Shown piece by piece: positions 19,708 through 48,677 of a stretch of 64,000 nt of DNA (position 1 is the stretch's first letter; each line of letters begins with the position of its first letter). The notes under the pieces are model-generated. The model ran no database searches, was not told the DNA's origin, and worked only from the letters and a program-made list of their open reading frames with translations. The DNA is taken from positions 1,426-65,425 of the forward strand of contig CAUJCM010000002.1 in assembly GCA_963169655.1 (NCBI GenBank), in the 5' to 3' direction. This DNA is from Patescibacteria group bacterium (GTDB taxonomy: Bacteria > Patescibacteriota > Gracilibacteria > UBA1369). Both the position numbers and the translations under genes were made by a program.

Positions 19708-19717
19708 TTAAAATATT

Positions 19718-22593: not shown

Positions 22594-22612
22594 TCATTAA
22601 TCATAATTATTT

Positions 22613-22641: not shown

Positions 22642-22706
22642 GATCATTAAAAAACCCCATCTGTAAGAAAATGGGATTTTTCAAAACTTTCCTTTATTTA
22701 ATTTCC

Positions 22707-23711: not shown

Positions 23712-23820
23712 TTTGATATTTATATTAAAGCTAGGCAAATTTTAATATAAAAAACTGTTTTAGCAAAGTGAAAGAGTCAATGAACTCAGATTTAATAAGT
23801 TCTTTTTAATTAATTGGAAA

Positions 23821-25179: not shown

Positions 25180-25285
25180 TTTATTTTTGAATTGCAATCA
25201 ATTTATTATAGCAGATTTGAAGAATATTTAAAAGGTAAATCAAGTGAGTCTTATTTAATATAAAATATTTAAAATAAATAAAAAT

Positions 25286-25314
25286 TTGCAATATTTCTAA
25301 AATATGGGTAAAAT
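25286..25314 (+). promoter_or_regulatory. Sigma70-type promoter of the pilin gene (TTGCAA-N17-TAAAAT)
   Basis: Hexamers at 25286-91 and 25309-14, 36 nt upstream of the ATG at 25350. Confidence 0.5.
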
Positions 25315-25349
25315 ATACTTAGCTTAATATAAATAACCAAAATAAAAAT

Positions 25350-25847
25350 ATGAGCATGAAAATTAAAAAAGGTTTTACCTTAATTGAACTTTTGATCGTA
25401 ATTGCGATCATTGGTATTTTAGCGGTTGCGCTTTTACCTAATGTATTAGGAGCTCCAGCAAGAGCAAGAGATAGTGCAAGACAATCAGATATACTTCTTA
25501 TTGTAAGAGCTTTAGAAACATATAATGTGGATAAAGGTTCTTATCCGGCAGACTCTTTTTGTGTAAAAACAGGAGATGCAAAGCTACCAGCTACATTAGC
25601 TGATGATTACTTTAATGGTAAATTACCAGTAGACCCATCTGGAACTAGCCATACAAATTATACTGGATGTGACGGAGCTTATTATTATTGTAAATTAGAT
25701 GGATCTCCAAACCATTATGCTGTTATTGCAAAATTAGAGAATACGAACTCAAATAAATATGCTAACGATGCGATTACTGCTTGTGATGGAACAAAAGGCT
25801 TTGATGATTCCAAAACTGGAACAGACTTTTTTGCAGCTTTACAATAG
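25350..25847 (+). CDS. pilA: Type IV pilin (prepilin with class III signal)
   Basis: MSMKIKKG/FTLIELLIVIAIIGILA has the canonical G/FTLIE cleavage and methylation motif. The hydrophobic alpha1-N is followed by a globular domain with four Cys. Confidence 0.85.
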   Translation: MSMKIKKGFTLIELLIVIAIIGILAVALLPNVLGAPARARDSARQSDILLIVRALETYNVDKGSYPADSFCVKTGDAKLPATLADDYFNGKLPVDPSGTSHTNYTGCDGAYYYCKLDGSPNHYAVIAKLENTNSNKYANDAITACDGTKGFDDSKTGTDFFAALQ

Positions 25848-35100: not shown

Positions 35101-38100
35101 ATAGTAATATTAATTGGAATTTAAATGATTCAAGTTTAGTTATTGCAAATATTATTATATCTAGTGAAACACAGGAGAATGTTAAATTATTAGAAAATAA
35201 AGAACCTCTTCCTAATACTGTTGGAGTTTATATTAGAAAATTAGCTAATTTACCTAATCGTAGTTATGTAACTAACTTTAGTGGTAATTCAACATCTAAT
35301 AAGAGAGGTTATTATTATACAGACGATACAAAAGAGCTAAATAAGAACCAATCTCCTGGACTTTCTTATAATTCACTTGAATCTGCAGATAAAGAAGATG
35401 GAGTAGGACTTCGTGGAGATAATAAAAATGTTTTACTCTTTGCTGGAGGGAACACAGTTGGAGAATCTAATTTAAATTATGCTTCTGATGCAGGTGTTGT
35501 TTTAGGTGATCCTACAATTAGAATAAATAATAAAAAGGATCCTGATAGTATTGTTCAAGATGATGTTTTGTATAGTAATACTGGTTTTACAAAAGATCTT
35601 GGGGAAATGATTTATTCTGGAAATAAGCCAATCAGAGAAATTTTGCAAATTGATTATGATAATGATGGTGATAAAGATTTAATGATTACTTATTCAGATG
35701 GAGAAATTAGACTTTTAGAAAATATTAATAAAGGAAAGAGATTTGAAGATAAAGGAATATTCTTAAATTTCCCAAATGGGATTTTAAGTATTGTTGTAAC
35801 AGATATTAATAATGATGGTTGGGAAGATTTAATAGTAGCTACAAGTGATAGTTGTAAAGTTGGAGAAGTTTGTGTTGATGCATATTTAAACAATCATACT
35901 AATTTTGTTAGACATAATCTGAACCTCGAAGGATATGATAGTAAGAATAAAGTTTATGAGATGAAAGTAGCAGATATGAATCAAGACTCTTATCCTGACT
36001 TAATAATTTCAGATGATTTTGGTAATATTAAGATTTTCTATACAAAAAATGGAGAATTAAATAAAGGAGGTCAATTAATTGGAAATTTGGGAGTTAAAAT
36101 TAATCAAAATGATAATTTAAGGAATGAAGTATTTGTAAATTATGATGGAATGAGTGATAAACCTCTTGGATCAATAGATGATAAAAATTATCAAGAAATA
36201 GTTGTTAAAGGAAATACTGCATCAGAAGACCAAAAGTTACTATTTAAATCTCTATCAGTCGATAATATTTTGAAAGTTAGTAGTATTAAACAAGCAAAAG
36301 ATATTACTGAACCTTTCAATATGTTAGCTGCTGGTGATCAAGTTGAATACACTATTAAAATTGCCAATATTGGATTGAAAGAAATTAAAAGTCTAAAGAT
36401 CGCAGATTTAGCACCAGCTCCAATTGAATTAGATCAAGACTCAATTAAATGTTTAGATTGTAAAAATGAAATTAATTTAATTCCAACTGGTCAAAGCTTA
36501 AGACCATATATCATTACTGGAATTGATTTGCCAGCTAAATCAACTAGAACAATTACTTATAAAACAACAGTAAAAAAGTTACCTAGAGTTAAATTAATGG
36601 TAGGTCAAAATTTGAGTAAAGATTACCCAATACAAGATGGTTATCCAGATATAATGGCTACTCCAGAAAATAATCCAACTGGTAAAGCTGTTTATTATTA
36701 TTCAATTAGTAAAGATTCAATTACTGGACAAATAAAGTATGGACAATATACAACTCCAGATCCAAATGCAGGGGTAAAGCCTGGATATAATCAAATGACT
36801 GATCAAGATGGAAATAAGGTTGGTCCTGATTTGAGCTTATTTGAAAAGAAAAATGCAGATGGTATTCCAATTGCAGTTCAACATTATATGGATTATGGAA
36901 CTTTCCCTGGTATGTCTATGGGTGATGTTGTAGATGGTGGAGGAGTTTATACAGATTCAAATGGAGATACTATTTCTACATTACCAGGTGTGGGACCTGT
37001 TTATGATAAGTTAGGGTCAACATTAGATAAAGCTGCAGATAAAATTGAGTCTGCAATTAATGCTTTAACTTGTACAAGTGGTTGTATACCAATGCCAATA
37101 AACTTTGCATTTTTAGCTCCTGGTCCAATAAATGTGATGGGGATTCCTAGTGGTTTTGATCCAGGATTACCAATTTTTGCTTGGGGAGTCCCTAGTATTG
37201 TTCCTGTTTGGCCTCCTTCACCATTTCAAGCTTCTACTGGAGGAAGAATTTATGTATCCCCTACTTTGACAGGAAAAGTAGCAATGGCAATTTGTACTGG
37301 TCCTTACTTAGTTGGTTATGGGCCAGTACCTGGAAATTGTTATACTATTGTTTTACCTGTTAATCCTCTAGGTGAACTTTGTGATAAAATAGCTGATACT
37401 ATGTCAGGTATGTTGAATGGTGCTATTAGTATGGTCAATGATACTGCTGGAAATATTGGACTTTCTACTGATGGAAGTATGTCAACAATGCCTACAAATG
37501 ATGGAAGTAATTATACTGGTGGATTTGAAGCATCAAATAGTATGGGAAATTATCGAATGTCAGTTAGTGCTAAAACGAATATTAGAATACCAAGCTTTCC
37601 TTCTGTTTTAACAGATTGGTTAGACAATCAAACTCAAGAAATAATTAATAAAGTAACTGATTTACCTGATATACATATCTTATTACCTGATATGTTATCT
37701 CCATTTGTAGATGGATCAAAACAAGATAAATTAAATGATTTAACAGAAGGATCTTCAAAAGTAGGAAGTGAACCAATGAGTGCCAAAGGTATTAGAGGAG
37801 TTTTACAAACTATCAATGAAATTCCTTTGATTGCTATTGAGCCAAAAGAAGTAATTATCTTTATTCCTTCTTTAACGCCGGGTGAAATAGATAGGTTTGT
37901 AAATGATGCAAAACAATGGGTACAAGATGAAAAATCTGAATTAAATAGAGCTTTAAATGTATGGAAATGTGGACCTTTTAAAGAAACAGTAATAGGACCT
38001 GATGGACAAAAAGTACCTGGCTATATTGATGAAAACGGAAATACTGTTTATGGCGACAGGCCTTATGCCAAGATTTGTGACATTATTACGGTTGATATGA

Positions 38101-41100
38101 CTGAATTGATTCAGACGGTTGAAAAAAATATTGAAATAATTAATAGCTATAAAAATTTACCAAGACAGATTTTGGCTTGGAGAAATATGCTAACTAAATA
38201 TGTTACTCAAATAATTTGTTATATTGATATCATTTTAGATTTCTTTATTGGGAATATAGCAAAATGGCTAGATCAAATTTATGGATGGATTGATGCTTAT
38301 AATAATGCTTTAGAAATGATATCGAGTTGGCAGGTTTTGATAGATCTTGTAATTGAATATCAAACAAGTTGTGATACTTGTACTAGCTCAAGATTCTCAC
38401 TTCTAGAATTAGTACTAAGAGTATTTACATTTATTCCTAGCCCACCAATTATTCCTTTTCCAAAACTTCCTGATATTTATATTGACTTGTCACAAGTTCA
38501 AATGGGTATAAAAATACTTTGGCCTGATTTGAAATTTAGACCGTTAAAACTTGTTTTGCCAAGATTACCAAGGATAGCTTTACCGGACTTGCCTACTTTA
38601 AATTTTAGATTACCTAGTATTGGACTGCTTCCTGAAATTGCTATCTTCCCTGAATTACCAGACTTGCCACCATTAACATTACCTCAACTACCAAATCTTC
38701 CACCTCCACCAAAGATCCCTGCTTTCTCAGCATCTTTTAAAGCAACGATTAATATTTTACAAAAAATATTTAAGATACTTTGTTTAATTAAAAAAGGATT
38801 TATTCCAACTCCTGAAATGAATCTTAAAACTACAATTGAACATATGACTGAAAGAGGTTTAGATCCTCTACTTCCAATTGATTTAGGATTGGGCTTCCAA
38901 ATGCCAGCAATTAGTTATAACTATATGGATAGAATGGTTTTAACTGCTAAAGTAAATCTTCAAACTGATTTTTCTGCCATTTACGATATCATGAAATACT
39001 TTGCAGATAAAATTAATCTACTACCTACTAATTTTGTAAATAATGTAAATGATATAACAAAAACAATTAATAGAGGGTTGGACGATACAGTTAATTCTAT
39101 TAATCAAGGTTTAAATGATGCTGTTAAAGTTAATTTTAATTGGAATAAACCAAATCAATTTCAAATTCCAGAAATTGAAAGTGATGGTGCAGATATGAGA
39201 ACAGTTTTAGATAATAATCCAGATATCTTAAAAGAATTAAATCAGATCTCTCCAGAAATTGGTTCTTTAGTTTCAGCTTTAGCCAATTCTACAAAAGAAA
39301 TGGAAATTGATAGAATTAAATATCAAGAAATTATAAATAGAGATTTCCAAGATATTCATTTAGTAGCTTCAAGTATGACTATTAGCCCTACTGATCCTTT
39401 AATGAATAAATCTATTGAAGATTTAAGAAATTTTGATATTCAAAAAATAATGGCTGTTCTTGGTCCAGGATTTGAAGAGACAAAACAACTAGCGAGATTA
39501 AGAAGTAATTTGTTTGCATTTGTAGAAGAAAATCAAAAACTAGATGATTTGGCAAATACCAATGACTTAGAAAAATTTGCCACTTTGATGGCACAAGCCC
39601 CTTCTATTAGCGATGTATTAATTAAATCAGGTTATTCAAGTGAAGGAACAATGATAGCTGATGATAAAAATAAAAAGTTATTTGCGAAAACTCCAAGTAT
39701 TGATGACATTATTAGAAATTCAGGACTTCCAGCCAGCACTCAAAGTAAACCAATAACTAAAGGGATGTTTATTTATAATGAAAAAGAGAAGTTCAATGAA
39801 AAATTAATTGATTTTGAAGAAGAATTATCTCTCCCAACAACTATGAATTTTATTGATGTTGATCAAGATAAAGATACCGACTTAATTTATTCATTTGGAC
39901 CAAATATTTACCTCAAGAACAATTATAAATTTAATACTAATATTGGTAGTTTCTATGGAGGAATACCACAATATCATGAATTGATTGATTTTATGCCTGC
40001 TAGAGGGTCGGTGACAGGATTTAGCTCTACATTTAATGGTAATAAAAACTTAGAAGTTAAATGGAATAAAGCTAATGGAAGTGATATTTATGGTTATGAA
40101 ATGATAGTAGGTAAAAGGCTGGGAGGATCTTCCAATAAAGGTGTAACTAATGATGTAAATAGCTCTGGACTTCAGAAATTTGTTTATTTAAATAATAAAG
40201 AAATTACAGGCGGATTACTGACAAATTCCCTATTACAACCTGATAGCAATTCTTATAAATTCCCTATTTCTAAATTATATGAATTATCAGCTAATAATGT
40301 AAATGGAGAGATAAGATTTACAGGGCCAAAACAAGAAATTATTGTCGCAAATAAAGATAAAATAAAAGTGAAAGGTGGTATTCAAATTTATGCAAGTAAA
40401 GATAGTATTTTGAAGGTTTGGCTAAATGGAGAAAGCAAAGCTGATAAAAAATTACAAGCTAATGAATTGATTGAAATGCCAAGAAACTTTGGTGGAAATC
40501 TAGAAATCCAATTAAATAGTGGATCAATTACTTTAATTGATACAAATGAAATTGTTAAAAATCAAAAATTAGTTGATGGAAATAAGATAGATATAAAAAC
40601 TAAATATACTTCGATTAATAATGGAACCGCAATAATTAAATTACCTGGAGATTCTTATACAAGAGTAGATGCTGGTCAAAGTTTAGAAATAAATATTTTA
40701 GATAATCCAAAAAAGCCTCAAGTAAATTTAAACTTAGAGAATGGATTCTACTATGCAGTAATTCGATCGTTTAATAAAACAGGATTTAGAAGTTTAATCT
40801 CTCAAAGTATTTTACTATGGCCAAATATTTGTAATGACAGACAGCTACCAATGCCAGTGGCTGGACCTGATGAAAGAGAAGTTGCAATATTTAAAACTTT
40901 AGAAATTGATGCAAGTAAGTCATTTGATGCCTTTGGCAGTGTAGTTAGTTATTATATTGATACCGATTTAAAGGTTGATAGTGATGGAGATGGTGATACT
41001 ACAAATGATAAAAATTTAGGTAGAGATTTGGATCCTAATGTAGATAGTGATGGGGATGGAATACCTTATAATGATTTAGATGATCCAATTTTATATGTAG

Positions 41101-43646
41101 GACCTTATAAAGATTTAAATGATATGGAAATAATGTTAAATATTGTTGATGAGTCAGGTAATATTGGGCAACAAAAAATCACTATTCACGTTTATGTTCC
41201 TTCTATAACATTGGATGATAGCTCAAGTAATTTAGAAGCAGATCCTGATGGAAATAATGGAAAGAGTGTGTCAGGAAGTATTGATCCAAAAGAAAGTAAT
41301 ATTCCAATTGCTATTATTCGAGATAGGAATGGAATTAAAGAAATTATTATAACCAAAAAAGCTAATAGTAAAGGAAAATACTTAACTGACGAACAAGGTA
41401 AATTTGATATTTCAGACTTAAATTTAAATGATAAAGTAGTTATTAAAAATGCTAATGGCCAAGTAGTTGCAGAAATAGATCCAGAAACAGGAAGAATTAT
41501 TTTAATTGATCCAACTTATTCGATTGAGGTTCTACCTGCTCAAGAACCAATATTGCCAACTCGAGTTGTAGTAAGAAACCCTCAAAAAGTTATAGTAGCT
41601 ACATTATTTATTGTGTCAGATGCTAATACTGATGTGACAATTGATGATCAAAATGTAATTTATAATAGGAATACAGTTTTACTATTTAATGGAGTTCACT
41701 ACAAAGATATTCAGCAAGAAAGTTTAGGATTTGAATTAAAACAAATCCCTGCAGATAGTAATAAATTTGCTGGAGGTATTGAAATGATTGAAAATAATAC
41801 TTTAAAGAGGGTATTTGTGCTTGATTCAGGTGGTAATTTCTATGTTTATGATCCAAGAATACAATTAAAATTGAAATCAGTAGATAATTTGGAAGATCCA
41901 ATGATTATCCAAGTTTTATGGCAGAAGGAAGATGGTAATAAAGAAGTTATTGGTGAATTTTATGTATCATTTAGCTCTAAAAATCCATTACAAATATTAG
42001 ATGCTGAAAAATATAACGCTTTTGTTGAAAATCCTAATGTTTTTGGACCTGAATTTGATACGGATATGGATGGTATGCCAGATTTATGGGAGATGCAATA
42101 TGGACTTGATTATAATAATCCTTTAGATGCTAAAGAAGATCCAGACCAGGATGGTTTAACTAATTTAGAAGAATATTTAGCCGGAACTAACCCACTTTTA
42201 GCTGATAGTGATGGAGATGGATATTTAGATGGCTTTGAAGTAATAATGGGTAAGGATCCTTTAACAAAAGTAATCTCACCATTTGCCGATGTGGATCCTA
42301 ATAACCCTTATTATGAATCAATAATTAACTTCTATCAAAGAGGTATTCTTGCTGGAATTCCTGCTGGCAATCAAACTAACTTTGGATTTAAAGAACCTAT
42401 TAATCGTGCGGAATTTGCTAAAGTGATGTTAGACACTTTCTGTATTGTACCAAGGCCTGAAGCTTATCAAGCTCCTGGAGTATTTTATGATATTCCATAT
42501 AAGGAAGGTCAAAATCCTTGGTATTTTACAGCTACTAAAGAAGCTTATTTCCAAGGATTTATTACTGGTTATAGAGGTGAAATAGATATAAGAACTGGTC
42601 AAACACCTTTTGCTCCAAATGAAACCATTACAAAAGCTGAAGCAGTAAAAATTATTTTAGAAGCTTTAGAAAGAGAAAGAATTATTGATCTATCTAAAAT
42701 ACCTGAAACTGAACCTTACTATATTCCTTATATGGCTGCTGCCCAAAACTTAGAACCTTATTTAATTAAAGGTAAAACTTTAAAAAGTAACTTTATTTTA
42801 ACAAAGGAAGAGGCCTCTAGACCTGGAGAAGAAATTAATCGTGGGGAATTTATAAAATTAGCAGATAGAGTCTTAACTGCTTTAGATTGTTCTGTTATTG
42901 ATACAGACCTTGATGGAATGCCAGATTTCTGGGAACAAAAAAATGGATTAAATTATTTAGATCCTAGTGATGCAGATTTAGACCCAGATCAAGATGGTTT
43001 AACTAATTTACAAGAATATAAATTTGGAACTGATCCAAATAATGCTGATACAGACGGTGGTGGTATCAAAGATGGAATAGAAGTTTTAAAGAGGAGGACT
43101 AATCCTTTAGATCCTAAAGATGATTATCTAGATAGTGATGGGGATGGAATTTCAGATGATGAAGAAATTAATAAATATGGAACTGATCCATTTAATTCTG
43201 ATACCGATGGTGGTGGGGTAGATGATTATACTGAAATATTTATTAAAGGTACTAACCCATTAAATCCACTTGATGATTTAGATAGCGATAATGATGGATT
43301 ATCAAATTATGAAGAAATTAATATTTACCATACTGATCCATTTAATCCTGACACTGATGGTGGTGGAGTTAAAGATGGAGTAGAAGTTTATAGAAATTCT
43401 GATCCTTTAAATCCAAATGATGATTTAATAGATCCAAGAAAAGATTTGGGACCAGGAGTTTATGTGATACCTCCAACTTGTTCAACATGTCCTTGCGAAT
43501 CAGCAATTGACCATACAGCTGACCTGATTCCAGGAGATAAGATTTTAGGAATTATTTCAAATGATGATAATTCACAAATATTTAGCCAAAGTAATTTAAT
43601 AGAAATAAAAGAAATAAATAAGAGTAAACCAAAAGAAGTAAAATAG
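26109..43646 (+). CDS. Giant (5,845 aa) multidomain cell-surface protein with SLH, Asp-rich Ca-binding-type, Ig-like, FG-GAP-like, DUF11-like and PKD-like modules
   Basis: One uninterrupted ORF with GTG start and TAG stop. It has an N-terminal hydrophobic signal/anchor (FSLLITALFTFNLSAPSVLAF), and the domain motifs were read by eye (see sub-features). Confidence 0.85.
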   Translation: MQKIKNKITKLINLNFNKLANTRHFLLKFIKFLNKERSFSLLITALFTFNLSAPSVLAFWDNNKSLNSSPFKTQVAKAAESIFGKSGEILQQFSTKSEALKYQQNAKSKPQFDLIAILVDEEITKNLKDYDGLISSHNPNVPNKPEEAYRKLNEKTLMDRIERYAKDIQGINKVIDPVPYQKTVIIKVKRDEPTENIAMTLEKLYREGDSTLNENNKLRGIVIIGEVPLPVVNKNGNRFVSLFPYTDFDDPYYIFDQESGDFVVNVSSQDHNAEIWHGIIVPPVDGEEGNKLLAEYFDKNHLFKIGEKGYQDFNKEIFYSDLNKEFQLMGKEGLPAYYNYLKYWEDISYFRFNKNWLKLLYENSSFGGDEGDGIDNDGDGKIDEDPVNGYDDDGDGENGSPLFGLINGVDDDGDGVIDNDEEGVWGFCGPIPAKGPVKLQNCKVPGMPYKTDNFYNTKAGSYYKVADGINNNPEENALIDEGIDEDPGDAMKGIDNDRDGRIDEDGTDDNDADGDKKVDEDMPGDMNKDGCPGECGVDENLDSIDSDNDGWPDGYEKKYGSIKIGASQFGDLLSGNMPSFNTPTNPRDPFSFPTIAISFPGPIPTMFIPRFIPWPNSNEWVDNSISFDDDEDGKIDEDGLDDNDADGDGLFDEDPGDPLGNDKKNAGSQISEGLPDIKSKDVIMTYLKQYNELFDNFYADVNTWIAGTGRYEISAPKVDGSNKSDLRSFPFLISVKDEFTRLYLKAVNDAIEKRVDQYVQKLQYDIRLIKGSNLSGYIVLDDSLGIFPNQKIKFNDINFINFGYKNSVFANKVHTFLNDPIIKIFLKSALLGNPNKDNIKDLRNELLKDMKGSVTSTTPIYINGKPIDSITNIQQCSLYRGSEGIGEQSQMVYANTLNDVFGNLNKETPPSIPESWRSKSKNELLGTSGEDYKNGLFYWWNNSSDSPMVKWLKKQKALNESFAGCFYENSQNPDRCYVSLATRYIFSLGGAIQVKNIPENYVSHQACFDLKEKSGYDAFMIDTNIYLEAISQTKSPEQKEKYEIIKPNPADAYKKPKDIILLDFGDNAPSEYEVTPNNYLPINPLEIQAIQQNPNFQAFNINLEQVLRAYMGGNRVDDNGNGVTDELAESNIQFFPIDANGQPNWFQVGEQLLQNTRIDEAATDPKLKPLRFLNGIIPGTKEVYIRVQPIFGKEISSLIFHKEPTIDTLEAQIYQLERDDNGDFIVDNTLSDREKRNIGQYKVETKENPNGDKVPQKHGVAQSLPIDSPRYVSFRDSNGNYQKIVYPNAFQSKDSNDFKQQLKDLELQLANIKVNPKYANIGPNSIDGYLTGALADFINNDVMNSATGDISVISEKKLKDAYDWKKMDIDEKHQYAISHYLGQAFTPFTPNVEANKGYEVLYLNSAGDSQKLSMKFNADIPPIQQKTMMEEVDCTDPQFAKYAICKDMVSDMDGLNINIEQNKQINNPNSVLNGGKGSGGGLTPVFITEWFAALAKWADETAEIINGKDSFNSCPAPIYDKNAGTEQVDSNLDNTILDLMPDLTGGSNTTYSSSTDIKANTVNLKLEIENNKTLLRSSMSDQAKIIVTALNKNGQINRADSFSNVNLNITNAIGNGDIIEVVGEKSKTLAGGQTMFIIAGGDDEGSVLINASLNEDNKVKSNSVSVKVTKEVIKLLAFRRFQAYQFTQGNEDGYTINDGNEVVADIDPKTGYINILNKNYQLKVLTSKAEKPLRLAVVKKEDQKVISILYFVTSGEKGITIDGPNVDYQKDFEKLEGVHIKDLTAKDNLSLQSIGDEDPKLKGNLLIVDSTVKENKGRVGLIDKKGNLFTELDVQIKEGDKNEPVIWEILGNDGRPAMEMYIAAKFKEITILPYEDIKEFFAKLSNQLLNTQFAKLIKTAHAQEKTENEEKADTNDIKKKITDSDGDGLNDLEELIIGIDPYKLDSNGDGINDLDSLYQNIDPINKQKTPLFADINEKDNGFKEIVKLFRRGIFVMDANKFVRPKDKITREEFVKLDLGGICVICDRFSEKIKSAVWQVYSNNPFPDLDIGNDYKYCIAEGRNRGIISGYKAYSNAGYFVPKANISRAEATKVILETARQQIESFPDFQVNEKLAGKPWYYTYVLTAQKEGLYPKGYFQSLDSLKPEQFKAYFDNQIALSNLGLPGGSLNSQFITWLEQPITRVEFAIMVSQFTDKYDCLSTDSDMDGIPDNFEKYIYGTNPNLADTDKGGVNDGIEILRGTNPLDPSDDQKIEKEEIPVINENDDPDEDGLTNKEEAKYDTNPMDPDTDHGGVKDGIEVLLGIDPLNPEDDNDFGKGSGLENQNTDGAYLSGINIVPKIIYTTIDNDDENQINTEETDRIPADGESTLYIRASIYSSDGKIKADDNESIINFSFKNPSDFENATLNPLSVKVKNGVAETTLTAKKKTGLPIVIAGIQNENVPSDEQVVEIYALEPAIISLDTKTPIIPSGGQSNAEIKAVLKDRNGNIANSENYLVTFDIDDDTNEDQDRASLDYSKDENKEIDGVQQSTVTGELSIKLKSGINPETVKVKATYQGNIGLTEPTDVNDLNAELLNEDAQIFKPKELNSEITINTRDDLNIVIEKDKSELKANNADIANLTVRIADKNGNVLNDFQGSITAQLLDSRLGTLIDDKGQESQSLIRLNLINGLAKLKVRSSFIAGDLKILMSTDGIASSTVQLETYAYAPYKIELESDDMEVSTGKNNIYYLKAKVYDGMGNFVSRDNSTQIVFNINPETQKFGKLMSANSVKVKNGEALVQFMPTNITGPIRFTAKANKLMEGSLEVNSVYHLEGKELRDIQPKILYANLLGSAFGDVTSKDYFGGWFVFSGKVESAATLITDPKPKMRLVEVLPTGKIKLTGQGDLEIRLIPTSTDNSPVKQQAFDYDNNKQVMEVMSILSPLSKTKLIYSESDLDLVGNTVNVLNKVPDNENYTWENDTEKVDILKNGSLIASIKKDGRIKLFNPNTSLTVNESSNDSNINWNLNDSSLVIANIIISSETQENVKLLENKEPLPNTVGVYIRKLANLPNRSYVTNFSGNSTSNKRGYYYTDDTKELNKNQSPGLSYNSLESADKEDGVGLRGDNKNVLLFAGGNTVGESNLNYASDAGVVLGDPTIRINNKKDPDSIVQDDVLYSNTGFTKDLGEMIYSGNKPIREILQIDYDNDGDKDLMITYSDGEIRLLENINKGKRFEDKGIFLNFPNGILSIVVTDINNDGWEDLIVATSDSCKVGEVCVDAYLNNHTNFVRHNLNLEGYDSKNKVYEMKVADMNQDSYPDLIISDDFGNIKIFYTKNGELNKGGQLIGNLGVKINQNDNLRNEVFVNYDGMSDKPLGSIDDKNYQEIVVKGNTASEDQKLLFKSLSVDNILKVSSIKQAKDITEPFNMLAAGDQVEYTIKIANIGLKEIKSLKIADLAPAPIELDQDSIKCLDCKNEINLIPTGQSLRPYIITGIDLPAKSTRTITYKTTVKKLPRVKLMVGQNLSKDYPIQDGYPDIMATPENNPTGKAVYYYSISKDSITGQIKYGQYTTPDPNAGVKPGYNQMTDQDGNKVGPDLSLFEKKNADGIPIAVQHYMDYGTFPGMSMGDVVDGGGVYTDSNGDTISTLPGVGPVYDKLGSTLDKAADKIESAINALTCTSGCIPMPINFAFLAPGPINVMGIPSGFDPGLPIFAWGVPSIVPVWPPSPFQASTGGRIYVSPTLTGKVAMAICTGPYLVGYGPVPGNCYTIVLPVNPLGELCDKIADTMSGMLNGAISMVNDTAGNIGLSTDGSMSTMPTNDGSNYTGGFEASNSMGNYRMSVSAKTNIRIPSFPSVLTDWLDNQTQEIINKVTDLPDIHILLPDMLSPFVDGSKQDKLNDLTEGSSKVGSEPMSAKGIRGVLQTINEIPLIAIEPKEVIIFIPSLTPGEIDRFVNDAKQWVQDEKSELNRALNVWKCGPFKETVIGPDGQKVPGYIDENGNTVYGDRPYAKICDIITVDMTELIQTVEKNIEIINSYKNLPRQILAWRNMLTKYVTQIICYIDIILDFFIGNIAKWLDQIYGWIDAYNNALEMISSWQVLIDLVIEYQTSCDTCTSSRFSLLELVLRVFTFIPSPPIIPFPKLPDIYIDLSQVQMGIKILWPDLKFRPLKLVLPRLPRIALPDLPTLNFRLPSIGLLPEIAIFPELPDLPPLTLPQLPNLPPPPKIPAFSASFKATINILQKIFKILCLIKKGFIPTPEMNLKTTIEHMTERGLDPLLPIDLGLGFQMPAISYNYMDRMVLTAKVNLQTDFSAIYDIMKYFADKINLLPTNFVNNVNDITKTINRGLDDTVNSINQGLNDAVKVNFNWNKPNQFQIPEIESDGADMRTVLDNNPDILKELNQISPEIGSLVSALANSTKEMEIDRIKYQEIINRDFQDIHLVASSMTISPTDPLMNKSIEDLRNFDIQKIMAVLGPGFEETKQLARLRSNLFAFVEENQKLDDLANTNDLEKFATLMAQAPSISDVLIKSGYSSEGTMIADDKNKKLFAKTPSIDDIIRNSGLPASTQSKPITKGMFIYNEKEKFNEKLIDFEEELSLPTTMNFIDVDQDKDTDLIYSFGPNIYLKNNYKFNTNIGSFYGGIPQYHELIDFMPARGSVTGFSSTFNGNKNLEVKWNKANGSDIYGYEMIVGKRLGGSSNKGVTNDVNSSGLQKFVYLNNKEITGGLLTNSLLQPDSNSYKFPISKLYELSANNVNGEIRFTGPKQEIIVANKDKIKVKGGIQIYASKDSILKVWLNGESKADKKLQANELIEMPRNFGGNLEIQLNSGSITLIDTNEIVKNQKLVDGNKIDIKTKYTSINNGTAIIKLPGDSYTRVDAGQSLEINILDNPKKPQVNLNLENGFYYAVIRSFNKTGFRSLISQSILLWPNICNDRQLPMPVAGPDEREVAIFKTLEIDASKSFDAFGSVVSYYIDTDLKVDSDGDGDTTNDKNLGRDLDPNVDSDGDGIPYNDLDDPILYVGPYKDLNDMEIMLNIVDESGNIGQQKITIHVYVPSITLDDSSSNLEADPDGNNGKSVSGSIDPKESNIPIAIIRDRNGIKEIIITKKANSKGKYLTDEQGKFDISDLNLNDKVVIKNANGQVVAEIDPETGRIILIDPTYSIEVLPAQEPILPTRVVVRNPQKVIVATLFIVSDANTDVTIDDQNVIYNRNTVLLFNGVHYKDIQQESLGFELKQIPADSNKFAGGIEMIENNTLKRVFVLDSGGNFYVYDPRIQLKLKSVDNLEDPMIIQVLWQKEDGNKEVIGEFYVSFSSKNPLQILDAEKYNAFVENPNVFGPEFDTDMDGMPDLWEMQYGLDYNNPLDAKEDPDQDGLTNLEEYLAGTNPLLADSDGDGYLDGFEVIMGKDPLTKVISPFADVDPNNPYYESIINFYQRGILAGIPAGNQTNFGFKEPINRAEFAKVMLDTFCIVPRPEAYQAPGVFYDIPYKEGQNPWYFTATKEAYFQGFITGYRGEIDIRTGQTPFAPNETITKAEAVKIILEALERERIIDLSKIPETEPYYIPYMAAAQNLEPYLIKGKTLKSNFILTKEEASRPGEEINRGEFIKLADRVLTALDCSVIDTDLDGMPDFWEQKNGLNYLDPSDADLDPDQDGLTNLQEYKFGTDPNNADTDGGGIKDGIEVLKRRTNPLDPKDDYLDSDGDGISDDEEINKYGTDPFNSDTDGGGVDDYTEIFIKGTNPLNPLDDLDSDNDGLSNYEEINIYHTDPFNPDTDGGGVKDGVEVYRNSDPLNPNDDLIDPRKDLGPGVYVIPPTCSTCPCESAIDHTADLIPGDKILGIISNDDNSQIFSQSNLIEIKEINKSKPKEVK
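27208..28094 (+). repeat. Giant protein: first cluster of Asp-rich DxDxDGxxDxD repeats (thrombospondin type 3-like, Ca-binding type)
   Basis: Examples are DNDGDGKIDEDP, DDDGDGVIDNDE, DNDRDGRIDEDGTDDNDADGDKKVDED, DSDNDGWPDGYE and DDDEDGKIDEDGLDDNDADGDGLFDED. Confidence 0.6.
31875..33050 (+). other. Giant protein: TSP3-like repeats, then two SLH-like domains, then further TSP3-like repeats
   Basis: DSDGDGLNDLEE..DSNGDGINDLD comes first. SLH-like FADINEKDNGFKEIVKLFRRGIF...ITREEF and FPDLDIGNDYKYCIAEGRNRGIISGY...ISRAEA follow. The segment ends with DSDMDGIPDNFE...DTDKGGVNDGIE...DPDEDGLTNKEE...DTDHGGVKDGIE. Confidence 0.6.
33188..34535 (+). other. Giant protein: at least four tandem bacterial Ig-like (Big/invasin-type) domains
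   Basis: A recurrent pattern IPADGESTLYIRASIYSSDGK / IPSGGQSNAEIKAVLKDRNGN / LKANNADIANLTVRIADKNGN / YYLKAKVYDGMGN, each followed by a V.F stretch. Confidence 0.55.
35643..36585 (+). other. Giant protein: FG-GAP/VCBS-like repeats followed by a DUF11-like conserved repeat domain
   Basis: DYDNDGDKDLMITYSDGEIRLL, DINNDGWEDLIVATSD and DMNQDSYPDLIISDDFGNIKIF come first. GDQVEYTIKIANIGLKEIKSLKIADLAP...TRTITYKTTV follows. Confidence 0.5.
38555..38725 (+). repeat. Giant protein: proline-rich LPxLP tract inside the unassigned core
   Basis: The encoded sequence is LPRLPRIALPDLPTLNFRLPSIGLLPEIAIFPELPDLPPLTLPQLPNLPPPPKIP. Confidence 0.7.
40848..41195 (+). other. Giant protein: PKD-like domain with embedded Asp-rich loops
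   Basis: PVAGPDEREVAIFKTLEIDASKSFDAFGSVVSYYIDTD...ITIHVY resembles the PKD pattern AGPD...V.LDAS.S.D..G.I.SY.W. Confidence 0.5.
42054..43428 (+). other. Giant protein C-terminal block: TSP3-like repeats, then SLH-like domains (42282-42890), then an extended TSP3-like array
   Basis: DTDMDGMPDLWE..DPDQDGLTNLEE..DSDGDGYLDGFE comes first. SLH-like FADVDPNNPYYESIINFYQRGILAG...INRAEF and FYDIPYKEGQNPWYFTATKEAYFQGFITGY...ITKAEA follow. Five or more DTDGGG/DSDGDG units end the block, and the nucleotide-level repeats are visible. Confidence 0.65.
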
Positions 43647-43663
43647 GTATAATATAAATATCA

Positions 43664-44317
43664 ATGAAAAATAAAAAAAATAAAAATAGCTTTCAACAAC
43701 TAAGTATTACAATTTCTTTGATGATGCTGTTATTTATTGGAAATAGCCTTGGTAATATTGGTAATATTTCTTTGGCTCAAGAAGATACACAAAGTATTTC
43801 TACTGTTACTCCAGTGGAAGGAAATCAAATACAAATTAATAAAGAAACTCAAGTAGCTTGCCAAACTAAAATTGCTGAATGGGCGGAACCTGAATTTGAA
43901 AAATATAAAGTTTTTATGGAAAACCATTTTAGCAATAAAAGTAAGACTTCTTCTTTAATGGAAGAGGCTATGAATAGATACGAAAAATTTAAGTATGATA
44001 TTTCTGTAAAATATTCTGAATTTGTAACATTTCACATCAATCAAGCTGGTATATCAGGTGCAAATGTGGGAGTACAATTAGTAGGTTTATCTCAATGTGA
44101 ATCATTAGTTCGAGAATATATTCAAAATGCAAATAAACTATTGCAAATGAGAGCTATTACAACTGCAAAGATTAAAAAGGCTTCTGTTTTTGTTGAAAAA
44201 TATCAACAAATAAATTCAAAACTAAGATCTTTAAATGATGATTTTATTAAGATGGTTGTAAATATCTCTACTTTTGATCAAAAACTTCCTTGTTATCTAA
44301 AATCTTGTGTACAATAA
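43664..44317 (+). CDS. Secreted hypothetical protein 1 of 4 (217 aa, 4 Cys, ends ..LPCYLKSCVQ)
   Basis: Signal peptide ending SLAQ. The start lies 17 nt after the giant-gene stop, and there is no recognisable domain. Confidence 0.7.
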   Translation: MKNKKNKNSFQQLSITISLMMLLFIGNSLGNIGNISLAQEDTQSISTVTPVEGNQIQINKETQVACQTKIAEWAEPEFEKYKVFMENHFSNKSKTSSLMEEAMNRYEKFKYDISVKYSEFVTFHINQAGISGANVGVQLVGLSQCESLVREYIQNANKLLQMRAITTAKIKKASVFVEKYQQINSKLRSLNDDFIKMVVNISTFDQKLPCYLKSCVQ

Positions 44318-44318
44318 A

Positions 44319-45329
44319 ATGAAAAATAAAATTATTTATCTATCAGCTAGTTTACTCATAATTTTGAGTGGGGTTATGCTTTTTGGTTCTTATAGAGGGA
44401 TAGCTCAAAACAATGAAAATATTCCTCCAGTAAATTCTGCTAATTTTATTAATGCTTTTTGTTTTGATGGACAAATAGATCAAATGGATATTAAAGATTT
44501 ACAAGAGATGTATCTTGAGAAGACAAATGAATATTTTAATCAAAAAATTAAAGATGTTTTGCAGGACGAAAGAGATGAGGCTCCTACTCCAAATTTAGAT
44601 GAATATGACAAACTAGGTGGGAATCTCTGTACTAGTAGCGGAGATAGTGATTTAACTTGTAAATCTATAGCTGTTTGTAATCCAAACAAACAAGTTGATG
44701 AAAACCAAGATTATGCAAATCATCCTTATTGTGTTGGAGTTACTTTACTTGGCTTGCCTCCTGCTAAATTTGATCATTATAATTATCAAAGATTACAAGA
44801 AATCGAACAATTAAAATACAGTTATTTTTGTTATTATTCAGCTTTGAATTTAAAAAGAGATGCTATTTATGATGGGACTCCACAAGGAATTTTAGATAAA
44901 TGTAATACTGACAATCCATTTAAAAATGAAAAAGTATGTACCTTACAATCTCAAATCTCACAAGAAAATGATTCCGAGAAAAAAGAAGAATTGAAAGGAC
45001 AATTAAATCAAGAATTAACAAAGCAAATGGTTGGGTATGGATATATGGATGACGATACTCCTGATCCTGGAAATAGTATTATTAGCTATATGAATTACAC
45101 AGCTAATAGAATAAATTTTATAGACGATGAAATTGAGAAAGCTAAGCTTGCATTAGACCAAACTTTAGATGCTTATAGTCAATTAAAAACTTCATGGCAA
45201 TTACATATTAGATATATAGATATTTTTAATAATTTAGTAAAATACAGAGATCAATTGGTTAATATTCGACAACAGACTGATGTATTTCCAATGAAATTTG
45301 TAGATGCTACAACTACTAGATGTCTTTAA
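44319..45329 (+). CDS. Secreted hypothetical protein 2 of 4 (9 Cys, ends ..TTTRCL)
   Basis: ATG at 44319, in the TAAAATG junction, gives MKNKIIYLSASLLIILSG..GIAQ. It is preferred over the GTG at 44307. Confidence 0.7.
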   Translation: MKNKIIYLSASLLIILSGVMLFGSYRGIAQNNENIPPVNSANFINAFCFDGQIDQMDIKDLQEMYLEKTNEYFNQKIKDVLQDERDEAPTPNLDEYDKLGGNLCTSSGDSDLTCKSIAVCNPNKQVDENQDYANHPYCVGVTLLGLPPAKFDHYNYQRLQEIEQLKYSYFCYYSALNLKRDAIYDGTPQGILDKCNTDNPFKNEKVCTLQSQISQENDSEKKEELKGQLNQELTKQMVGYGYMDDDTPDPGNSIISYMNYTANRINFIDDEIEKAKLALDQTLDAYSQLKTSWQLHIRYIDIFNNLVKYRDQLVNIRQQTDVFPMKFVDATTTRCL

Positions 45330-47152
45330 TGAAAAAATTAATTTACATAATTGGTTTTCTAATGTTTATGAGCGTAATAATTCGCCCAGGCGGAATGATT
45401 GACTTAAAAAATGTCTTTGCAGCTGATTCTGAAATCGAAGACTGCGTTCCAAGCAGGAACTTGGGATGTAGAGAAAGCCAATTAATTAAAAGAGTATTAA
45501 AAGATAATCCAAATAAAAACTTAGATTGGGGGCAAAGTTTTGGATCAACAGATCCAAATATTATTGGAGATAATCTTTACTTAATTATATATAAAGATAT
45601 TAATTTAAACTCACTTGATGAAGCAATTAATGCTACTGCTGATCAATATGGAATGCCTGTAGAAAGAATGTCTGAAATATTATACGGTGATATTAAACCG
45701 ATTCTTGAAAGAAACCCATTAATGACTATTGAAAGAGCTACAGAAATTTATATGCAAATAATTGCTACTTATGAAGATAAAAAAGATAGTGCAGAATTAC
45801 AAAATTATTTAAATTCAAAAATTCTATCTAATGAAATGTTTGCAGATGGAAAACTAGAAAACTCTGGTTTTGATTTAGTTGTAGATTTAAATAATATAGA
45901 AACTATTTTATTCCAAAGAGCAGAACCAATTACTTATGGAGCAAACTATGTTCCTAGTGCTAATACTGGAGATAATAATGATGATTCAAAATTAAAAGAT
46001 GATATTATTGATTTACCAATTGATCTGTCAGGGGATATTTCTTTAAATAATGGTTCTTCCAATGGACAATCTAGTAATAATCAACAAAAAACTAATCAAA
46101 ATCCTTTTAAACAAGCTGAAGAGCTAAAAAAATCTATTTTTGATAAAGGAATTAATCCTAATATTTGTTTTACCACTCAAGACCTAGATAAACCATTAGA
46201 TAAATTGTCTAAAGATTTACAAGGTAATAAAAAGCTAAAAAGTAATTTTGATGCTGAAAAAGATTTAGACAAAATAAATAATAGCCAAAACAATCAGAGG
46301 GGGGATAATGTTAATGATTTAAGTAATGTAGGACCAGATTTACCAATTGATTTAATTCCAACGGATAGTCAAATCCCAAAAGATGTTAAATCGGCACCTC
46401 CAGGAGATTATAGTAAAGCTCCTTTATGTGAAGATATTATTTGTATAACTTTTGAAACTTTTTATAAACCAGCTACCCCAAGTTTTACAAAGACAGATAA
46501 CTGTATTCAATGTCATGTTCAATATATTAATGAAAGTCTACAAAAGACTGTAAGTCATAGCTTAATTCCTGCAAAAGCTACTGGAAATCTTGGAGAAAGT
46601 GCTTTATGTAAGAATGCAGCTGCTGCTTCACTTTCTGCAATTGGTATGAATATTAGTGTAAATATGGTGCCAGTTATTACACCTCCCAAAAATGATTTAA
46701 TGAGTGTAGGAAATATTAATGATGAATGGAATAAATATGCTCAAACAAATGGATTTTGGAATTATGGTGAAAAACAAAGAAGAGAAGCTGATGCTAAAAA
46801 GAAAAATGGCCCAGTAGACTATTCCCCTATTTCAAGTGATATGGAAAGAATGTTGGTAGTTGAATTATTTAATGCTGGTGATAATTCTTCAATTGATGAG
46901 GTAATGTCACAAGCATCAAGTAGCTATGAAAAATTAAAAGTTCAAGCTGCGCAAGAACAATTAGTTGTGGAAATAGCTCAAGATGCCTATGGAGAAATTA
47001 ATACTTATGATGCTTTAGAGGATGAAATGAAGCAAATGAATGGATTTTTTAAAAACTTTAAAGATCAAATGCGTACTTTGTATGAAGATGTTCCTGGATT
47101 AAATTCAACAAAAGCTTGTACTAACTTAAATAATAAAAGGGCTTGTACATAA
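45329..47152 (+). CDS. Secreted hypothetical protein 3 of 4 (10 Cys, ends ..KACTNLNNKRACT)
   Basis: ATG at 45329, in a TAATG overlap, gives MKKLIYIIGFLMFMSVII. An alternative ATG lies at 45320. A central Asn/Asp/Gln-rich low-complexity region is present. Confidence 0.7.
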   Translation: MKKLIYIIGFLMFMSVIIRPGGMIDLKNVFAADSEIEDCVPSRNLGCRESQLIKRVLKDNPNKNLDWGQSFGSTDPNIIGDNLYLIIYKDINLNSLDEAINATADQYGMPVERMSEILYGDIKPILERNPLMTIERATEIYMQIIATYEDKKDSAELQNYLNSKILSNEMFADGKLENSGFDLVVDLNNIETILFQRAEPITYGANYVPSANTGDNNDDSKLKDDIIDLPIDLSGDISLNNGSSNGQSSNNQQKTNQNPFKQAEELKKSIFDKGINPNICFTTQDLDKPLDKLSKDLQGNKKLKSNFDAEKDLDKINNSQNNQRGDNVNDLSNVGPDLPIDLIPTDSQIPKDVKSAPPGDYSKAPLCEDIICITFETFYKPATPSFTKTDNCIQCHVQYINESLQKTVSHSLIPAKATGNLGESALCKNAAAASLSAIGMNISVNMVPVITPPKNDLMSVGNINDEWNKYAQTNGFWNYGEKQRREADAKKKNGPVDYSPISSDMERMLVVELFNAGDNSSIDEVMSQASSSYEKLKVQAAQEQLVVEIAQDAYGEINTYDALEDEMKQMNGFFKNFKDQMRTLYEDVPGLNSTKACTNLNNKRACT

Positions 47153-48336
47153 TGAAACTAAATAATAATAAAATTTGGATTTTAAATTCTATTGTTCTTA
47201 CAATAACTTTTATGATTCTATTAAGCGGGTCAAATAATGATGTTAGTTATGCTCAGAAAAGTGTAGATAATAATTCAGGATCAGGAAAACAATTATTCTG
47301 TACTAGAGATTTTAGTAATTTTATAAATAACGGATTGGACTTTAATGGGGAAGGATTTATTGACTATTGGAATGATATTTTAGTTATTTATAATACAAAT
47401 TACTGCCAATATTCTGATATTGATAGTTTATTAAATAGAATTGATAAAGCCAGGAAACAAATAAGACAAGCCTTTTATGTTTGTGATACTGCTACAGCAA
47501 CTAGAGTAGCCAGTCAATATTACCAATTATCTGCAGAACTCTATTATTTAAGACATTTTGTAAATATAACTAATCCACCAAATCCAAAGGCTAGCGAGAA
47601 AGAAAAGGCATTAAATGTTATAAAAGATAGTAGTGTGCGCAAAAAATTTATGAATATGTTCGTTAATGATTTAAAATATTTTGATGCTGATACTGGAAAT
47701 AGAGTATTTGAACAATTAGAAGCAAAGTATGCAAGTAAAATTGAAGCTTATCAAAATTGTTCTGACCCTAACTTAGGAATGTTAACAGATAGAATAAATA
47801 ATATTAAAAATACGCTTAACCAACTCAAATTACTTGGTGATAGATTTCAAGCTAAAGTAGAAGCAAGAAATAATGCTCGTGATAAAAGATTAAAAGAAAA
47901 TCCAGGTATTTTATCAGCATTTTCCGCTCATAATGCAGCTGAATTTTTTAATAGCGTCTTTAATATAAGATTAAATAATGAACCAATTAAGGAAACTACT
48001 GTCTGGGAACAAATTTCTAACACTTATAAACAAAATAAACTTGGAGGTAATTTAACTGCTGAGAAAGATAATATTGAAGTGCCAAGAGGTATTAAATTTA
48101 ATGATATTGCTGATGATTTATCTTTAATAAAAAGGAGAGATATGGATGTGGATATGGATATTAAGTTTGTGACAAGCTATGACTTAAAATACAGGCAAGT
48201 TGGAGGGATGGGACTAGATAAAGCTAAAGTAAATTTAGATGATTTGAAAGTAATTCTGACTGATACTTTCCAACCTCTTTTAGAAATTAAAGGATGTACG
48301 GCTAATATTGTTGGAAAACAGTGTGGAGAACGCTAA
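47152..48336 (+). CDS. Secreted hypothetical protein 4 of 4 (6 Cys, ends ..GCTANIVGKQCGER)
   Basis: ATG at 47152, in a TAATG overlap, gives MKLNNNKIWILNSIVLTITFMILLSG..SYAQ. It is preferred over the TTG at 47143. Confidence 0.7.
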   Translation: MKLNNNKIWILNSIVLTITFMILLSGSNNDVSYAQKSVDNNSGSGKQLFCTRDFSNFINNGLDFNGEGFIDYWNDILVIYNTNYCQYSDIDSLLNRIDKARKQIRQAFYVCDTATATRVASQYYQLSAELYYLRHFVNITNPPNPKASEKEKALNVIKDSSVRKKFMNMFVNDLKYFDADTGNRVFEQLEAKYASKIEAYQNCSDPNLGMLTDRINNIKNTLNQLKLLGDRFQAKVEARNNARDKRLKENPGILSAFSAHNAAEFFNSVFNIRLNNEPIKETTVWEQISNTYKQNKLGGNLTAEKDNIEVPRGIKFNDIADDLSLIKRRDMDVDMDIKFVTSYDLKYRQVGGMGLDKAKVNLDDLKVILTDTFQPLLEIKGCTANIVGKQCGER

Positions 48337-48450: not shown

Positions 48451-48467
48451 CCCCGCTGTTAGCGGGG
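48451..48467. terminator. GC-rich hairpin between convergent genes (candidate bidirectional terminator)
   Basis: Stem ccccgct / agcgggg with a 3-nt loop. On the minus strand it is followed by attgtggttttta. The U-run is weak on the + strand. Confidence 0.4.
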
Positions 48468-48497: not shown

Positions 48498-48677
48498 TTA
48501 TCTTGCTACTAAAGTGAGAATAGATCCTTTTACTCTGTCTTTCCATGCAAGATACGATTTTTTTCTTGATTTACCTGTAATATGTTCTAGGGCCTCAATA
48601 TTACTTGTTTTACAGTGAGGACAATTTTCTTTTTTGGTGGAGATTGATACTCCGCAATTGAGGCAATTAAATATCAT
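48498..48677 (-). CDS. Small zinc-ribbon protein (59 aa), absent from the supplied ORF track
   Basis: Hand translation gives MIFNCLNCGVSISTKKENCPHCKTSNIEALEHITGKSRKKSYLAWKDRVKGSILTLVAR*. It has CxxC-N11-CxxC, and its ATG lies 5 nt after the stop of the upstream HTH gene. Confidence 0.6.
   Translation of the reverse strand: MIFNCLNCGVSISTKKENCPHCKTSNIEALEHITGKSRKKSYLAWKDRVKGSILTLVAR

Follow-up and report, generated by a model that had tools for sequence, protein, structure and literature searches.

Why should four consecutive genes each code for an exported protein with a cysteine in its last four residues? The question is raised by a stretch of 64,000 nucleotides (nt) from a Patescibacteria group bacterium (GenBank assembly GCA_963169655.1, contig CAUJCM010000002.1, positions 1,426 to 65,425), referred to here as the window, which has ca. 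30% G+C and 33 likely genes. The four open reading frames (ORFs), P1 to P4, lie on the plus strand (block 43664-48336) directly 3' of a 5845-amino-acid (aa) ORF (26109-43646) for a giant surface protein, and they are alone among the 33 genes in having a Cys so close to the end of the product. Cys makes up 0.63% of the residues encoded in the window, which gives a chance of ca. 2.5% per protein and ca. 4e-7 for four neighbors; since the homologs keep the feature too, the pattern is not one of chance. The earlier note, made from the letters of the window, had staked the pattern on conservation of the terminal Cys, and conservation across the homologs of all four families is what was found; the C termini and Cys totals that it quoted (4, 9, 10, and 6 in P1 to P4) are exact. 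The answer that we put forward, with middling confidence and on the strength of comparative sequence data, is that P1, P3, and P4 would be joined to one another by interchain disulfides instead of each closing a loop of its own and that P2 would hold a spare Cys for a further link.

A scan with one genome per species gave 41 loci (loci are cited below by number), nearly all labelled Candidatus Peregrinibacteria, Peribacteria, Gracilibacteria, or Patescibacteria. P3 has 46 homologs, all without Pfam domains, and a HMMER scan with P1, P2, and P4 returned 623 relatives at an E value of ≤1e-3; among the best 150 of the 623, each matches one of the three queries, and most are similar in length and aligned through the C terminus. 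Identical copies of P4 were found on assemblies from several sequencing runs. The order giant-P1-P2-P3-P4 is kept in ca. 40 Peregrinibacteria loci, wherever the contig suffices, down to ca. 25% identity in P3, and the gene sizes in these relatives are 5316 to 5889 aa for the giant protein (where fully called) and then ca. 200 to 220, 230 to 346, 588 to 614, and 347 to 398 aa. A long ORF with the C-terminal domain of the giant protein directly precedes P1 in every P1-bearing locus (33 distinct loci), and loci L006 to L014 show the same order with tight or overlapping junctions. Downstream of the module there are usually HTH_17, UvrA, and PrsW genes on the opposite strand. One contig with a P3-P4 pair (L054, JBLIGW010000031.1) comes from a genome bin named Oceanicoccus sp. 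(Gammaproteobacteria); as all other matches are in Peregrinibacteria or Patescibacteria genomes, the contig was probably placed in the wrong bin.

Each family has a characteristic tail. P1 ends in KLPCYLKSCVQ (family consensus, TFxxKLPCYxKxC followed by zero to three residues), where C215 is invariant, as is C66 further upstream, while C145 is nearly so and C210 is variable. P2 ends in FVDATTTRCL (consensus, FPxKFIDATTTxCx), and its invariant Cys, namely, C120, C138, and the penultimate C335, are the entire Cys set of many members. P3 ends in ACTNLNNKRACT (C597 and C606; consensus, VPGLxSxKACxxLxxKxxC followed by T, S, Q, or E) and has a core of six Cys (C280, C367, C372, C392, C395, and C427). 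P4 ends in GCTANIVGKQCGER (C382 and C391), and its family tail is a C-x8-C motif, mostly ending in (K/R)QC, with C391 invariant and C382 variable. The last Cys of the tails usually has a Lys or Arg one to three residues ahead of it.

The evidence that carries our proposal is the pattern of loss of the seven tail Cys, tabulated over 35 to 38 distinct loci (the locus of the P1 variant P0157, L058, ends before P3). Two pairs of Cys that belong to different proteins were never discordant: P1 C210 and P3 C606 were both present in 30 loci and both absent in 5, and P3 C597 and P4 C382 were both present in 31 and both absent in 7. Within the same chain, P1 C210 and C215 were both present in 30 loci, both absent in none, and discordant in 5; P3 C597 and C606 were both present in 31, both absent in 3, and discordant in 6; and P4 C382 and C391 were both present in 31, both absent in none, and discordant in 7. 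P1 C215, P2 C335, and P4 C391 were not lost in any tabulated locus. The losses fall into three patterns, that is, P3 C597 with P4 C382 (L050, L052, L044, and L054), P1 C210 with P3 C606 (L045 and L047), and the union of both pairs (L038, L048, and L049). All three patterns amount to the removal of whole bonds under one pairing, P1 C210-P3 C606 and P3 C597-P4 C382, and P1 C215-P4 C391 is then assigned by elimination. Because the loss of a variable Cys always coincides with that of a Cys in another protein, with no discordant locus, we infer that the tail Cys bond between chains.

This pairing makes a prediction about genomes outside the table. Three loci with a P4 lacking C382 were fetched later, and the neighboring P3 lacks C597 in all three, as predicted; in one of them (L061), C606 of P3 and C210 of P1 are missing as well. 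The losses lie in at least two deep clades per bond on a rough neighbor-joining tree. The parity of the Cys counts in the mature proteins is also regular: whenever one of P1, P3, and P4 has an odd count, exactly one other of the three does too (L021 excepted), P2 has an odd count in 33 of 34 loci (again all but L021), and the sum over P1 to P4 is odd in every one of the 32 loci whose genes are complete. The odd number of Cys in P2 to which the earlier note had drawn attention is hence a property of the family, with C120, C138, and C335 as the minimal set. In L021 (CAUJDC010000036.1), there is one extra Cys each in P2 (10) and P3 (11, mature), so that the parity shifts are matched between proteins. 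Inside P4, C50 and C111 are lost jointly in L043 and L046, which suggests the pairs C50-C111 and C85-C203.

The most serious alternative is the one that the earlier note had favored, in which the C-x4-C and C-x8-C motifs close intrachain terminal loops as in the D-region of type IV pilins; P2 alone would then have a free Cys, and interchain bonds would arise only in lineages with broken loops. The two Cys of each tail are indeed near in sequence, a nonhelical tail would easily accommodate a loop of 4 to 8 residues, P1, P3, and P4 keep both Cys in most genomes, and there are type IV pilus genes upstream in the window. However, the supposed loop partners were lost separately in all of the discordant loci listed above, each time matched by a loss in another protein, and a new interchain bond would be required at the moment of every double loss. 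Furthermore, the AlphaFold2 model of P4 has C382 and C391 both on the last, continuous helix at positions i and i+9, a spacing that, with moderate confidence, would put them out of bonding distance of each other. The likeness to the pilin D-region comes down to a Cys pair close to the end of an exported protein with pilus genes nearby, and the covariation and the modelled helical tail of P4 speak against it, if indirectly; P1 to P4 also differ from pilins in having no class III (prepilin) signal, no N-methylation motif (and no N_methyl match), and no pilin alpha-beta fold. We therefore regard local loops as unlikely.

Several points nevertheless weigh against interchain pairing, or limit how much the covariation can say. 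The Fisher p values of the two cross-protein pairs (3e-6 and 8e-8) ignore shared ancestry, and parsimony on the rough neighbor-joining tree gives only ca. four bond-loss events, each bond having been lost about twice; with so few independent events, the replicated part of the co-loss test is worth only ca. p = 0.1. The later loci (L059 to L061) may belong to clades already sampled, and the mature Cys counts hang on alignment-based trimming of signal peptides. Given that P1 C215, P2 C335, and P4 C391 are invariant, covariation is silent on their partners. The tail helix of P4 has a predicted local distance difference test (pLDDT) score of 74 to 79, with the last residues below 50, and the AlphaFold2 model of P3 is poor (mean pLDDT, 50.6), too poor for a fold search. 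The giant protein holds 36 Cys, with no identifiable free one. Loops in most genomes, with an orphaned Cys crossing to another chain only after its loop was broken, would fit the variant lineages equally well. Finally, the water in which many Peregrinibacteria live is anoxic, and disulfides outside the cell may not be stable there. Interchain pairing throughout and pairing only after loop breakage alike need the three tails to come together and an interchain disulfide to exist in the variant lineages.

Under interchain pairing, the module could work as follows. P1 to P4 can be read directly from the sequence as secreted and mostly alpha-helical subunits whose fixed proportion is set by a translationally coupled operon, itself part of the conserved module with the giant SLH/TSP3/FG-GAP surface protein. 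The operon probably has an extended -10 promoter of its own, 8 to 10 nt before the P1 start, and can probably also be read through from the giant gene. After Sec export, the subunits would assemble through their C-terminal regions, where the tails of P1, P3, and P4 would meet and the disulfides P1 C210-P3 C606, P3 C597-P4 C382, and P1 C215-P4 C391 (the last by elimination) would close a ring of three bonds. The oxidants would be membrane-anchored proteins of the DsbA/thioredoxin kind, for example the products of 4055-5742. The penultimate Cys of P2, with no partner inside P2, would be free for a fourth covalent link, for which either the C-x2-C-P-C domain of the giant protein or a second P2 can be suggested, speculatively, as the partner. 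Either link would fasten the complex of small subunits to the wall-anchored giant protein, on which the complex would sit and which would bind the cell wall through its SLH domains. Judging by the domains of the giant protein and by what has been proposed for related lineages, the assembly would most likely be a cell-surface structure for contact with other cells.

As to the giant protein, its C-x2-C-P-C motif is, by inference only, a candidate docking site for the unpaired tail Cys. A search for giant Cys that covary with the tail Cys found none, because all of the giant Cys compared are invariant: in the last 2850 aa, all 21 Cys are shared by 8 diverse genomes (with P3 identities of ca. 30 to 50% among them), and no other aligned position has a Cys in at least two of the 8. 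The complete picture, a closed P1/P3/P4 disulfide ring with P2 covalently attached to the C-x2-C-P-C motif, i.e., a stapled five-protein cell-contact machine specific to Peregrinibacteria, is put forward tentatively, and we consider it doubtful as a whole.

A ring of this kind has well-known counterparts in animals. In fibrinogen, three different helical chains, each with two close Cys where the helical assembly ends, are connected by three interchain bonds, and the resulting ring clamps the chains in register; laminin has an interchain disulfide at the C-terminal end of its coiled coil. The likeness to the fibrinogen ring is one of topology, in the deduced P1-P3, P3-P4, and P4-P1 pairing. If membership in this class of assembly is taken to require two Cys per chain going to two partners, two of the three bonds put forward here show co-loss without exception, and the third follows by elimination, all from few independent events. 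The motif in fibrinogen is C-x3-C, in contrast to C-x4-C and C-x8-C here, there is no kinship in sequence or fold, and here the proteins are bacterial and Sec exported, a fourth subunit has a single Cys, and the ring is deduced from covariation. If true, the ring together with a link between P2 and the giant protein would give bacteria their first counterpart of the fibrinogen/laminin disulfide clamp, built from four families without known relatives.

The covariation turns hypothetical proteins into a testable model that specifies the contacts between subunits and the residues that make them. More generally, co-loss of Cys across neighboring genes can expose contacts between subunits where searches by sequence or fold fail. 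Peregrinibacteria and their relatives are uncultured, ultra-small bacteria with tiny genomes that are believed to lead an attached life on other cells. The module described here is one of few large cell-surface gene sets conserved throughout the lineage, and most of its parts have no known relatives.

A second alternative, which we consider quite improbable, is a metal clasp, in which the tail thiolates would jointly bind Zn, Cu, or Fe between subunits, possibly together with the C-x2-C-P-C motif of the giant protein. Links of this type are known from the zinc clasp of CD4 and Lck and from the zinc hook of Rad50. The giant motif resembles a soft-metal site, with the three invariant single tail Cys as possible further ligands, and ligands shared between proteins would likewise be lost together; a clasp would also survive the reducing, anoxic surroundings that disfavor disulfides. 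On the other hand, bonds between two partners account better for the strictly pairwise co-loss and the even parity than three- or four-ligand sites do, genes for DsbA-like oxidants are close by, and no conserved pattern of His, Asp, or Glu ligands is present in the tails.

The three invariant terminal Cys, to which covariation assigns no partner, could instead be explained by an attachment or sorting tag, the last Cys being bound covalently to a nonprotein partner (a cofactor, a lipid, or a wall polymer, for instance) or marking the protein for a dedicated processing enzyme; its position a few residues from the C terminus, beside basic residues, is that of short tags. We nevertheless judge this to be very improbable. 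There is no transferase or sortase-like gene inside the conserved module, the motif is not followed by a membrane helix and basic tail, unlike LPXTG, PEP-CTERM, and MYXO-CTERM signals, and the co-loss of the variable Cys across proteins would be left unexplained. A last idea, that P2 to P4 form an alpha-helical pore-forming toxin of the ClyA/Hbl/Nhe type against a host cell, with the giant protein as the delivery platform, is far-fetched: an operon of several helical proteins of 200 to 600 aa with signal peptides and a weak NCBIfam HblD match of P4 (E = 0.023; 13.6 bits versus a cutoff of 650 bits) would suit it, but no ClyA-family structure in the PDB was found by Foldseek with the model of P4 (the only one of the proteins testable in this way), profile searches against PDB sequences are empty, and no mid-protein segment is above the membrane-helix threshold.

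In order to place the four proteins among known families, they were searched against Pfam, NCBIfam, PHROGs, and PADLOC, which gave only noise, and their family profiles were compared with all PDB sequences, where nothing rose above noise; the statement of the earlier note that no domain can be recognized in them is thus borne out. The P4 model (mean pLDDT, 75.8) is all alpha, with a C-terminal helical hairpin (residues 316 to 347 and 352 to 391), and Foldseek found no fold match for it in the PDB (best E value, 0.54; low template modeling scores; none at an E value of ≤0.001). As far as these searches can tell, the P1 to P4 families and the five-gene module are undescribed. All four N termini have a Lys-rich or basic start, a hydrophobic stretch of 15 to 20 residues, and a cleavage-type site (SLA/Q in P1, GIA/Q in P2, VFA/A in P3, and SYA/Q in P4, with the slash marking the cleavage), in accordance with the Sec-type signals, three of them ending in AQ, that had been read there before. 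Neither a lipobox nor a prepilin motif is present in the N termini of the four proteins, and none of them has a further membrane helix above the threshold, residues 432 to 450 of P3 being only moderately hydrophobic.

Several known classes of proteins were rejected. The signals are ordinary ones of the basic-hydrophobic-AxA form, with no PF07963 N_methyl match, unlike the pilin of the window (25350-25847), so that the proteins are not type IV pilins or pseudopilins. They are not bacterial lipoproteins either, as there is no Cys at or near the predicted cleavage site in any of them. Signals of the LPXTG/sortase, PEP-CTERM, MYXO-CTERM, and GlyGly-CTERM types do not apply to proteins that stop one to four residues past the Cys and have no hydrophobic segment there. 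For P3, whose model is too poor to judge the fold, a thioredoxin or DsbA identity was dismissed on sequence, since it has no Pfam or NCBIfam thioredoxin match, whereas the proteins of 4055-5742 are detected easily or evident by eye. P3 does contain, at 46427-46516, the motifs C367-x4-C372 and D390-N-C392-I-Q-C395-H396, both invariant in 39 homologs; the second (DNCIQCH) has the CXXCH form of heme attachment sites or of redox/metal CXXC sites, and the C-x4-C sits 20 residues upstream of it. The motif brings c-type cytochromes to mind; P3 does not match any cytochrome family in the Pfam, NCBIfam, and PDB profile searches.

Other assemblies that use terminal Cys offer partial parallels. In IgM and IgA, a short C-terminal tailpiece has a penultimate Cys that serves solely to assemble the protein covalently with other chains; for IgA, assembly of the tailpiece with the J chain is described in PMC7707832. 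The P2 and P3 tails, which also end in C-x-COOH, share this arrangement with IgM and IgA, and they differ in that the latter are eukaryotic proteins with an immunoglobulin fold and beta-strand tailpieces; no homology is implied. In the Ena pili of Bacillus, subunits are locked by disulfides of Cys in short terminal connector peptides (bioRxiv 10.1101/2020.08.21.260141), and they too are bacterial and extracellular. Ena connectors are N-terminal, however, and belong to beta-rich jellyrolls (DUF3992) that form homopolymeric fibers, whereas P1 to P4 have C-terminal tails, are helical, comprise four different proteins, and give no sign of a fiber; there is no kinship in sequence or fold with Ena either. 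Within the lineage itself, large extracellular proteins of Peribacteria (ca. 1,655 aa on average, 7% Cys) have been proposed to serve in attachment, and a disulfide-formation protein is also mentioned, in a report on that group (Anantharaman et al. 2016; PMC4736985); the likeness lies in the lineage and in the theme of exported, Cys-bearing surface proteins. Cell contact has been proposed for large surface proteins of this lineage and its relatives in PMC4736985 and PMC8080830. Term searches found no mention of the five-gene module, its small subunits, or their terminal Cys in PMC4736985 and no description of the module in PMC8080830.

The earlier note had also seen a hint of distant paralogy among the four proteins. 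Comparison by blastp revealed no similarity among them. Comparison of whole-family profiles aligned P1 with P2 at a probability of 76% over the C-terminal ca. 100 columns, and hhalign with the last 100 residues gave 88% for P1 versus P3 and 66% for P1 versus P2, while reversed-sequence controls stayed at ≤25%. No similarity to P1, P2, or P3 was found for P4 in these profile comparisons; its C-x8-C spacing and K-x-C ending resemble those of P3. The suggestion is therefore supported in part, for the tails of P1, P2, and P3, in which a common C-terminal helical module is plausible, not proven, and not for P4.

The way in which the four genes are expressed was approached through their junctions and upstream sequence. 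The starts used here are the likely ATGs read from the junctions and differ slightly from those of the longest ORFs (for P2, the longest ORF would begin at GTG 44307). The P1/P2, P2/P3, and P3/P4 junctions are TAAaATG, TAATG, and TAATG, respectively, so that neighbors abut or share one base, and equally tight junctions are present in related loci, in line with the translational coupling claimed before. Public gene calls in L001 to L005 begin P2 at Met24 (nt 44376; 317 aa), which cuts off the signal peptide, and automatic annotation would therefore miss the secretion of P2; one public call puts the start of P3 11 codons late (596 aa).

A TATAAT hexamer upstream of P1 had previously been taken as a sign of an internal, nearly leaderless transcript. 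The plus strand of the window has 39 copies of TATAAT, and in DNA so rich in A+T, a single copy means little within the window alone; no -35 element passed the scan before P1. Across genomes, however, an exact TATAAT is present in 17 of 28 spacers between the giant gene and P1, versus 0.36 expected from the TATAAT frequency of each locus. In 16 of these 17, it is preceded by TGn, and in 11, it lies exactly 8 nt from the P1 ATG; loci with the element span 30 to 55% G+C, and TAAAAT or TAGAAT occupies the same spot in other spacers. In L048, the P1 start overlaps the giant stop (TAATG), and in L038 and L045, the gap is 1 and 5 nt, respectively. No terminator-like site was found between the giant gene and P1. 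The conservation of TGnTATAAT between genomes (16 of 28 spacers) makes a promoter of their own plausible, and P1 to P4 probably have one, with a leader of a few nt only; read-through from the giant gene is also possible, because no terminator separates the two.

In L026, L031, L032, and L034, the TGA stop of the giant gene supplies the TG of TGnTATAAT, so that the promoter-like site of P1 begins within the last codon of the gene before it. The same layout recurs elsewhere in the window, at 25198-25215 before the minus-strand gene 23821-25197 (TGcTATAAT, 8 nt, start codon TTG), so that leaders of this shortness may be frequent in the organism. The TGnTATAAT motif 8 nt before the start hints at nearly leaderless transcripts in the lineage.

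The features of the module and of its surroundings are collected in Table 1. The giant protein has an N-terminal signal or anchor segment and TSP3, SLH, FG-GAP, Invasin_D3/Big, and Glyco_hydro2_C5-like domains. Its residues ca. 3640 to 4300 form a strongly conserved Pro-rich and hydrophobic region, and a protein search with residues 3600 to 4400 returned no match; the N terminus, used in a metagenome scan, matched Asp-rich repeats only. A type IV pilus gene set (15827-25847) precedes the giant gene, and SLH proteins are also encoded upstream. At the beginning of the window, the gene pair at 4055-5742 resembles a disulfide-forming system for exported proteins, and its products are plausible oxidants of exported Cys. 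Rfam and tRNA scans of the 64-kb window returned nothing.

Table 1. Positions in the window of the five-gene module, its key Cys codons, and neighboring genes
Feature	Position	Strand	Remarks
Thioredoxin-fold gene, CPYC site	4055-4531	+	158 aa, 7 Cys, N-terminal membrane anchor
DsbA-like gene, CSYC site	4555-5742	+	395 aa, N-terminal membrane anchor; adjoins the 4055-4531 gene
PilB-like ATPase	18400-19707		
PilC-like platform protein	19718-21028		
Pilin with N_methyl motif	25350-25847		Directly before the giant gene
Giant surface-protein gene	26109-43646	+	5845 aa; conserved upstream partner of P1 to P4
Giant C-x2-C-P-C codons (C5791, C5794, C5796)	43479-43496	+	C-terminal domain; invariant in 33/33 loci
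Extended -10-type element, aGgTATAAT	43645-43653	+	10 nt before P1 ATG; TATAAT at 43648-43653
P1	43664-44317	+	217 aa, secreted (predicted)
P1 tail Cys codons	C210, 44291-44293; C215, 44306-44308	+	C210 lost with P3 C606; C215 never lost
P2	44319-45329	+	336 aa, secreted (predicted), start ATG 44319
P2 C335 codon	45321-45323	+	Invariant, unpaired penultimate Cys
P3	45329-47152	+	607 aa, secreted (predicted), start ATG 45329
P3 tail Cys codons	C597, 47117-47119; C606, 47144-47146	+	C597 lost with P4 C382; C606 lost with P1 C210
P4	47152-48336	+	394 aa, secreted (predicted), all alpha (model), start ATG 47152
P4 tail Cys codons	C382, 48295-48297; C391, 48322-48324	+	C391 never lost

Downstream of the HTH_17 gene that follows the module, the minus strand carries a 59-aa ORF (48498-48677), just below the 60-aa cutoff of the ORF list, with two C-x2-C pairs, resembling a zinc ribbon; L006, L008, L012, and L013 have ORFs of 59 to 63 aa at the equivalent place. 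These genes would end at a terminator-like site on the minus strand, made up of a G+C-rich hairpin (48451-48467) and a run of T after it.

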